Below are positions 1-232 of a stretch of DNA of 232 nt, in pieces. A program made the translations under genes and the position numbers. This DNA comes from Escherichia coli. GTDB lineage: Bacteria; Pseudomonadota; Gammaproteobacteria; Enterobacterales; Enterobacteriaceae. Each line of letters begins with the position of its first letter. Position 1 is the stretch's first letter. Below the pieces are notes generated by a model that ran no database searches, had not been told where the DNA came from, and was given only the letters and a program-made list of their open reading frames with translations. Where the stretch lies: assembly GCF_003334405.1 (NCBI RefSeq), contig NZ_QOWM01000075.1, one strand, 5' to 3'.

Positions 1-76
1 GTCCCCTTCGTCTAGAGGCCCAGGACACCGCCCTTTCACGGCGGTAACAGGGGTTCGAATCCCCTAGGGGACGCCA
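1..76 (+). tRNA. gltT: tRNA-Glu (anticodon UUC), complete, with genomically encoded 3' CCA
   Basis: The cloverleaf can be folded directly from the sequence. Acceptor stem: 1-7 gtcccct pairs with 66-72 aggggac (7 bp), with discriminator g73 and CCA at 74-76. Anticodon stem: 28-32 ccgcc pairs with 40-44 ggcgg (5 bp), loop 33-39 ctttcac, anticodon TTC at 35-37 (reads GAA/GAG codons). T-arm: 49-53 agggg pairs with 61-65 cccct, with the canonical T-loop ttcgaat at 54-60. A short D-arm lies around 10-26. The 76-nt length and the sequence match my recollection of E. coli tRNA-Glu. The gene symbol is uncertain among the rrn-operon paralogues (gltT/gltU/gltV/gltW), which cannot be told apart from this window. 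Confidence 0.96.
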
Positions 77-109
77 CTTGCTGGTTTGTGAGTGAAAGTC
101 ACCTGCCTT

Positions 110-149
110 AATATCTCAAAACTCATCTTCGGGTGATGTTTGAGATATT
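110..149 (+). promoter_or_regulatory. boxB-like stem-loop of the rrn spacer antitermination module (RNA hairpin)
   Basis: Seen in sequence: 111-120 atatctcaaa is the exact reverse complement of 139-148 tttgagatat (10 bp, plus a110-t149). A 2x2 internal mismatch follows (121-122 / 137-138). The inner stem is 123-127 tcatc pairing with 132-136 ggtga (one G-U wobble), capped by a TTCG tetraloop at 128-131. Its position immediately 5' of a boxA-like motif matches the boxB-boxA arrangement described for rrn leader and spacer regions. Confidence 0.55.
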
Positions 150-161
150 TGCTCTTTAAAA
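150..161 (+). promoter_or_regulatory. boxA-like antitermination element (binding site for the NusB-NusE/S10 complex in rRNA antitermination)
   Basis: The sequence tgctctttaaaa at 150-161 closely matches the rrn boxA consensus (TGCTCTTTAACA-like). It sits directly 3' of a hairpin, as expected for the spacer boxA of rrn operons. Confidence 0.7.
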
Positions 162-190
162 ATCTGGATCAAGCTGAAAATTGAAACACT

Positions 191-208
191 GAACAACGAA
201 AGTTGTTC
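191..208 (+). other. Predicted RNA hairpin with GNRA tetraloop in the pre-23S spacer (possible processing or folding element)
   Basis: Seen in sequence: 191-197 gaacaac is the perfect reverse complement of 202-208 gttgttc (7 bp), closing a GAAA tetraloop at 198-201. Its function is not established from the sequence alone. Confidence 0.4.
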
Positions 209-232
209 GTGAGTCTCTCAAATTTTCGCAAC

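Follow-up and report, generated by a model that had tools for sequence, protein, structure and literature searches.

The hairpin-boxA element in the tRNA-Glu-type 16S-23S spacer of an Escherichia coli rRNA operon

A stable hairpin followed by a T-rich tract lies between the tRNA-Glu and 23S rRNA genes of an Escherichia coli rRNA operon, and the locus raises the question of whether this arrangement is an antitermination signal, a terminator or a determinant of RNA processing. The window, which is the whole 232-nucleotide stretch of DNA that was analyzed, corresponds to the 16S-23S spacer, of the tRNA-Glu type, in an E. coli rrn operon and is 100% identical to rrnG-type spacers. The full window matches E. 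coli chromosomes with 100% identity and has a median of 7 places per genome. In strain 120899, it is located inside the operon clpB-16S-tRNAGlu-23S-5S-kgtP, which is rrnG. The 23S gene starts 37 nt beyond the window end, and the mature 23S 5' end corresponds to window-equivalent position 270. The rRNA-operon spacer context assumed in the initial annotation is confirmed by the tRNA-Glu(UUC) gene at one end of the window and by the operon with 23S downstream. A sigma-70 promoter scan of both strands of the window found no promoter. Four minus-strand open reading frames of 20-26 amino acids within the rRNA operon were taken as chance, and weak Rfam matches (SNORD24, ceN33, DicF, Spd-sr07, mir-8315 and others) that scored far under their gathering scores were also attributed to chance. 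The features in the first part of the window are as follows.

1-76, plus strand: tRNA-Glu(UUC) gene, the marker of a Glu-type spacer (ARAGORN; Rfam tRNA, 60.1 bits; RefSeq annotation).
110-149, plus strand: boxB-like two-tier hairpin (repeat finder; minimum free energy (MFE) fold; covariation).
150-158, plus strand: boxA core, identical to the published rrn boxA consensus and predicted to be single-stranded (exact match; alignment; co-folds).
159-162, plus strand: A-rich extension of boxA, AAAA in Enterobacteriaceae (alignment; comparison of leader and spacer).

Hairpin and boxA of the Glu-type spacer

The hairpin is located 33 nt downstream of tRNA-Glu. A repeat finder identified inverted arms of 16 nt at 110-125 and 134-149 that are 88% complementary. 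The MFE fold of 110-149 has an outer stem of 11 bp (110-120/139-149) and an inner stem of 5 bp (123-127/132-136), which are separated by an internal loop (A121 C122/U137 G138); the inner stem is capped by a cUUCGg tetraloop with UUCG at 128-131. C122 and G138 are paired in the centroid structure. The initial annotation had described a 40-nt hairpin with a 10-11 bp outer stem, a mismatch, a 5-bp inner stem and a TTCG loop, and each element was correct; the 111-120/139-148 pairing that it proposed lies inside the folded outer stem. The folding energy was -17.9 kcal/mol compared to -8.1 ± 2.3 kcal/mol for 200 dinucleotide shuffles (z = -4.26), and 0 of the 200 shuffles folded as stably, although shuffle counts in the fold and covariation tests are not probabilities.

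The motif tgctctttaaaa begins at position 150, the base directly 3' of the stem. Its 9-mer TGCTCTTTA (150-158) has a single occurrence in the window, and none of 200 shuffles contains it. It agrees at 9 of 9 positions on the transcribed strand with the rrn boxA consensus UGCUCUUUA printed in PMC2724277 and PMC6614797. The motif that the initial annotation called boxA-like is therefore the exact rrn boxA. In rrnG, this boxA is 120 nt upstream of the 23S 5' end, between tRNA-Glu and 23S. The boxA core sequence TGCTCTTTAA occurs exactly twice in the 8.2-kb operon, once in the 16S leader and once in the spacer, and each copy is directly 3' of a hairpin.

The window contains every sequence-level feature of an rrn nut-like element except a GU-rich boxC. 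A stem-loop stands immediately 5' of boxA, with hairpin 110-149 ending one base before it, and the element is placed in a 16S-23S spacer shortly upstream of an rRNA gene, between tRNA-Glu and 23S. We did not detect a GU-rich boxC-like motif 3' of the spacer boxA, and matches elsewhere were no better than chance. The boxC position is taken here by a helix strand predicted by co-folding (161-182).

The E. coli rrn leader element is the closest comparison. Both elements are on the same strand of the same operon, share the boxA core and have a hairpin that ends 1-3 nt before it. In both, boxA is followed by the 5' side of a helix that RNase III processes, and published reports have the same factors acting at both copies. 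In the leader, the hairpin (gccgctgagaaaaagcgaagcggc) is short, GC-rich and unrelated in sequence to that of the spacer. The boxA of the leader has ACAA as its 3' flank and, 18 nt further on, a GU-rich boxC (tgtgtggg; ...tgtgtgggcactcg), whereas the spacer boxA is followed by AAAA and has no GU-rich boxC. The strand of the processing helix begins almost directly after boxA in the spacer, unlike in the leader. ACAA is also the boxA 3' extension in the spacers of Photorhabdus, Xenorhabdus and Edwardsiella.

The Ile/Ala-type spacers of rrnA, rrnD and rrnH are identical to the Glu-type spacer from boxA on (tgctctttaaaaatctggatcaagctgaaaattgaaac...), and their hairpin ends 3 nt before GCUCUUUAA. 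The sequence of the Ile/Ala-type hairpin, acttcagagtgtacctgcaaaggttcactgcgaagt, is wholly different (-15.5 kcal/mol, z = -2.6; E. coli K-12 rrnH spacer, L022 352-387). Because of this difference, a 66-nt query containing the Glu-type hairpin and boxA has only about 4 matches in an E. coli genome. With a different hairpin before boxA in the leader, the Glu-type spacer and the Ile/Ala-type spacer, E. coli thus has 'boxB' hairpins of three unrelated kinds. RefSeq has no feature annotated under the matches to the hairpin-boxA query, and no Rfam family spans the hairpin-boxA module of either the leader or the spacer.

Residues 110-162 are very probably the rrn nut-like site in its spacer copy, which would act in this E. 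coli rRNA operon as an antitermination and tethering signal. The proposal of the initial annotation that this is a nut-like boxB/boxA module of the rrn type is supported by the exact boxA, the covarying hairpin and the literature on this element.

In outline, the element resembles an intrinsic terminator or an attenuator, which would restrict read-through from 16S and the tRNA into 23S. Both have a hairpin followed by a U-containing tract, and here the -17.9 kcal/mol hairpin precedes UGCUCUUU, which has 5 U in 8 nt. In contrast to intrinsic terminators, the spacer stem has an A-U rich base, G and C break up the U tract, and a conserved protein-binding motif lies downstream. A scan for Rho-independent terminators on both strands of the window returned 0 terminator-like sites. 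The element is present upstream of 23S in every rrn operon, where 23S is needed in stoichiometric amounts with 16S, and the leaders and the other species have the conserved GCUCUUUAA after the hairpin rather than a variable U run. A terminator function is extremely improbable. The initial annotation had also warned that automated annotation could mis-call the hairpin as a terminator. This concern did not materialize; the hairpin went unflagged in the terminator scan, and RefSeq carries no feature at this place.

Conservation of the hairpin and boxA

Conservation of the nut-like element was examined in Enterobacterales by scanning one genome per species. The anchors, placed at the 3' end of tRNA-Glu and at the 5' end of 23S, were chosen outside the element to avoid sample bias. 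The scan yielded at least 20 loci with 14 distinct spacers, and 13 of these were aligned with MAFFT without reference to structure (alignment A1). The genera sampled were Enterobacter, Klebsiella, Superficieibacter, Photorhabdus, Xenorhabdus and Edwardsiella. When the E. coli stem was imposed on this alignment, 90.5% of the cells were paired compared to 28-46% with slid 3' partners, a comparison that covers 13 related sequences and a structure derived from one of them (E. coli). Changes on both sides were found in 8 of 17 stem pairs, compared to 1-4 in the slid controls, and the covariation score of the stem was reached by 0 of 500 shuffles. The outer stem illustrates these exchanges: it is UAUCUCAAA/UUUGAGAUA in E. 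coli, UAUCGUUAA/UUAACGAUA in Photorhabdus, and UAUUGCUAA/UUAGCAAUA in Xenorhabdus. The two-tier hairpin was recovered when the spacers were folded singly (13/13), and it ended 0-3 nt 5' of boxA.

The boxA core GCUCUUUAA was invariant in the 13 Enterobacterales spacers, and GCTCTTTAA was without change in the MAFFT alignment. Spacer positions G75-A83 of alignment A1 were invariant. In every locus long enough to hold both copies, the boxA core occurred twice on the operon strand, approximately 1,920 nt apart; this count covered 6 genera, among them Enterobacter, Klebsiella, Photorhabdus, Xenorhabdus and Edwardsiella.

The apical loops were mostly of the UNCG type. The loop is UUCG in E. coli, K. 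michiganensis and E. mori, and UACG or UGCG in Enterobacter, Edwardsiella and Xenorhabdus, with the sequence of the inner stem varying beneath it. The loops of Photorhabdus, Superficieibacter and K. spallanzanii do not follow the UNCG-type pattern. The A-U pairs beside the internal loop never vary across the Enterobacterales spacers.

Could the hairpin be chiefly a processing or stability determinant whose proximity to boxA is incidental? It might guide the nucleases that release tRNA-Glu, or it might shield the end of a fragment. The 33-nt distance from tRNA-Glu would fit such a role, as would the preservation of the structure while the sequence varies and the 5' end of a stable fragment, StyR-44, at position 154 just past the hairpin. 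However, in the E. coli Ile/Ala-type spacer, in 14 Glu-type spacers and in 12 distinct leaders alike, 1-3 nt separated the end of a hairpin from the GCUCUUUAA that follows it, and the hairpin sequences were unrelated among these three contexts. Since the leaders have unrelated hairpins at the same distance from boxA and no upstream tRNA, the constant partner of the hairpin is boxA and not the tRNA. The literature that we consulted also contains no report of a cleavage site within hairpin 110-149. A primarily processing role is very unlikely.

A second hairpin is located at window positions 88-102, 12 nt after tRNA-Glu. It has a GUGA/UCAC stem and a 7-nt loop, GUGAAAG, that is invariant in 13 of 13 Enterobacterales Glu-type spacers. 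Its stem was 86.5% paired compared to 15-54% in slid controls, with changes on both sides in 3 of 4 pairs. The 88-102 hairpin is missing from the Ile/Ala-type spacer, and we know of no function for it. One idea is that hairpin 110-149 and the 88-102 hairpin together form a specific recognition platform that exists only in Glu-type spacers. Candidate ligands could be a ribosomal protein, NusA/S4 or a processing nuclease. We consider this idea improbable. If it were true, the Glu-type hairpin would be more than a dispensable 'boxB' defined by position only, a possibility raised by the two-tier shape kept by compensatory changes, the invariant A-U pairs and the UNCG-type loops.

More distant spacers were collected from metagenome contigs anchored solely on a variant of the 23S 5' end. 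This sample comprised 22 distinct spacers, 20 of which had enough upstream sequence. The exact sequence (T/C)GCTCTTTAA was found in 16 distant spacers, in one copy each and 111-281 nt before the 23S start. All 16 had a hairpin 1-12 nt upstream of boxA and an AGCTGA block downstream. A single-base boxA variant, GTTCTTTAA, was at the expected place in 2 more, so that boxA was present, exact or variant, in 18 of 18 recognizable distant spacers. The initial annotation had staked its reading on compensatory changes in the stem and on conservation of the boxA core among rrn spacers, and the comparisons answered both points in its favor.

Several other observations came from the metagenome contigs. 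The boxA variant, (A/U)GUUCUUUAA, is a C-to-U change at the third position and was found in L031 (-139) and L044 (-244), relative to the 23S start; in both, it occupies the normal position 3' of the spacer tRNA. L039 and L041 have 23S genes with the conserved 5' end and had no 16S 3' end, tRNA or boxA in up to 1.7-2.7 kb upstream of 23S; they are not ordinary spacers and may be unlinked 23S genes or assembly chimeras. Longer Glu-type spacers (gap 204-234) gave 0 matches in the metagenome scan. The contig of L016 (JAHAYL010000010.1, 'MAG: Oxalobacter sp.') contains an rrn segment at 9909-13266 with 98% identity to E. coli and a spacer 100% identical to the window, whereas positions 1-8000 of the locus are without any E. 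coli match. This contig is probably a chimeric assembly or misbinned.

Predicted processing helix after boxA and the StyR-44 match

The sequence that follows boxA in the window was assigned to the pre-23S leader. The features of this part are as follows.

161-182, plus strand: nearly invariant block AAUCUGGAUCAAGCUGAAAAUU, predicted to form the distal part of the 5' strand in the 23S leader-trailer helix processed by RNase III (alignment; co-folds).
187-211, plus strand: local hairpin CAC-U-GAACAAC[GAAA]GUUGUUC-GUG in the pre-23S leader (fold and co-fold; part of the Rfam StyR-44 consensus structure).
214-232, plus strand: further predicted 5'-strand segments of the 23S leader-trailer helix (co-fold; sequence).
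154-232, plus strand: match to Rfam StyR-44 (RF01830), 93.4 bits, partial at the window end (PMC2943607).

The spacer and the 23S trailer were co-folded for 9 operons from 6 species, and the results are MFE predictions. The hairpin stayed local in 9 of 9 co-folds, and boxA was unpaired in 8 of 9. The first spacer-trailer pair was 1-4 nt 3' of the boxA core in 7 of 9 co-folds; for E. coli, this is window position 161. The co-folds of Edwardsiella and K. michiganensis have the same start of the helix, and a few spacer positions far upstream are paired with the trailer in addition. The block at 161-182 is predicted to pair with AUUUUCAGCCUGAUACAGAUU in the trailer, and spacer columns A85-A104 are invariant. 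The later segments are UCUCUCA (214-220) and UUCGC (225-229), and the co-fold continues the helix strand past the window to the 23S 5' end. Membership of hairpin 110-149 in the 23S processing helix was considered and ruled out; the hairpin is local in every co-fold, and the helix begins only after boxA. In the predicted layout, the hairpin precedes boxA and boxA precedes the 5' strand of the RNase III helix of 23S, an arrangement that parallels the 16S leader.

StyR-44 is the only Rfam family nearby. The full match covers window-equivalent positions 154-262 (L001 4154-4262) with 124.9 bits against a gathering threshold of 54. Like the nut-like element, StyR-44 is found upstream of 23S in all rrn operons, and it overlaps the 3' half of boxA and the entire downstream pre-23S leader. 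It differs in that it lacks the hairpin and the first four bases of boxA, and it denotes a detected RNA fragment rather than an antitermination signal. Since StyR-44 extends from inside boxA (CUUUAAAAAU) to 7 nt before mature 23S, it resembles an excised fragment of the pre-23S leader. It is most likely such a fragment or processing by-product and not an independent small RNA. Its authors noted that a processing intermediate could not be excluded (PMC2943607).

The sequence GCUGAAAAU (173-181) has two predicted partners. It pairs locally with AAUUUUCGC (220-228) in the Rfam StyR-44 consensus structure. Its alternative in the co-fold is a long-range pairing with AUUUUCAGC in the 23S trailer (L001 7205-7230). 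These two pairings are mutually exclusive, so a local helix formed during transcription may later give way to the leader-trailer helix.

Function of the spacer element

The nut-like element has a long literature. A boxB-like hairpin and a boxA are described in both the rrn leader and the spacer in an order reversed relative to lambda, and RNA polymerase is modified at both boxA elements (PMC6614797, PMC8632103, PMC6614801, PMC3639268, PMC4807359). BoxA is the essential part and is bound by NusB-NusE, whereas boxB has no consensus and is not required; the leader boxB is reported to be dispensable for antitermination, as is boxC (PMC6614797). NusB:NusE binds rrnG BoxA RNA with a Kd of 5-8 nM (PMC2800207), a value for the leader version, which has the same 9-mer core and a 3' flank of ACAA rather than AAAA. 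The founding papers, as cited by later work, are Berg, Squires & Squires 1989 (J Mol Biol 209:345) and Pfeiffer & Hartmann 1997 (J Mol Biol 265:385), the latter cited for the spacer boxA and 23S synthesis. The account in PMC4807359 is that boxA mutations lower rRNA synthesis, and it includes the spacer boxA study of Pfeiffer & Hartmann 1997. Read-through and efficient synthesis of downstream rRNA are credited to the spacer copy through these two founding papers in the passages of PMC2724277 and PMC4807359 that cite them.

The phage lambda nutL and nutR sites share with the rrn element a linear boxA (CGCUCUUA in lambda, UGCUCUUUA in rrn) that is bound by NusB/NusE, and a hairpin, both of which act in the nascent RNA to modify RNA polymerase. 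The spacer differs in that the order is reversed with the hairpin first, there is no N protein, and the hairpin sequence is not conserved. The lambda boxB loop is a purine-rich, N-binding pentaloop, whereas the loop of the spacer hairpin is UUCG, and SuhB and S4 take part at the rrn element in place of lambda N. Because the order, the loop and the protein differ, the spacer element is not a lambda-type nut site. The spacer hairpin is a 'boxB' by position only, with no conserved sequence and no N-type loop.

NusB/NusE binding and assembly of the antitermination complex are taken from the literature, tethering for 23S and an insulator role of the hairpin are inferred, and the following sequence of events is proposed for the spacer copy. 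Hairpin 110-149 would fold locally once the transcript leaves RNA polymerase after tRNA-Glu, and this folding would leave the adjoining boxA (150-158) single-stranded. The most likely role of the hairpin is that of a structural insulator, which would keep boxA unpaired and offer it in a fixed register. The NusB-NusE(S10) heterodimer would bind boxA, as reported in the literature, and together with NusA, NusG, SuhB and S4 would form or renew the rRNA transcription antitermination complex. Assembly would take place on the polymerase shortly before the untranslated 2.9-kb 23S gene and would give fast, Rho-resistant elongation. Because the complex would keep boxA bound, the sequence from 161 onward, the predicted 5' strand of the 23S processing helix, would be tethered near the RNA exit channel. 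The 5' strand would be held until its 3' partner emerges past the 23S gene, leading to RNase III excision of pre-23S. Since the leader boxB is reported to be dispensable, the contribution of the spacer hairpin may be small despite its covariation.

The primary output of the element is a separate matter. It is debated whether BoxA and the Nus factors serve mainly for antitermination at rRNA or for the tethering and maturation of the RNA during transcription. An alternative to the combined reading keeps the same element and the same factors and assigns the main function to RNA tethering and chaperoning, with boxA-bound Nus factors and SuhB holding the pre-23S leader for co-transcriptional formation of the leader-trailer helix. 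The 'delivery' model has been stated for both the leader and the spacer elements: the complex holds the nut-like element and presents 5' regions to their later 3' partners (PMC6614801, PMC8632103). According to Singh et al., Rho resistance is inherent to most rRNA transcription, and they put forward maturation, not antitermination, as the major role of Nus/SuhB at rRNA (PMC4807359). Two observations made here point the same way: in the co-folds, the leader-trailer helix is predicted to begin 1-4 nt beyond the boxA core, and the block at 161-182 is nearly invariant. On the other hand, the direct data for tethering all concern the 16S leader and not the spacer copy, and boxA gives read-through of Rho-dependent terminators in reporters and in vitro (summarized in PMC4807359). 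The two roles are also compatible with each other. The position of the helix 5' strand directly after boxA in the co-folds fits the delivery model as well as an antitermination model. We regard tethering as the main function as a serious possibility, to which we give somewhat less than even weight.

The hairpin-boxA element of the spacer is already known and has been described since the 1980s, and its recovery here adds no new biology. Since RefSeq and Rfam carry no annotation of the hairpin-boxA module, scans that work from sequence will keep rediscovering it, and the sole Rfam family in the vicinity, StyR-44, starts within boxA and is probably a processing by-product. On the published account, the element is one of the two places in each rRNA operon at which RNA polymerase becomes the fast, Rho-resistant and RNA-chaperoning rrnTAC.
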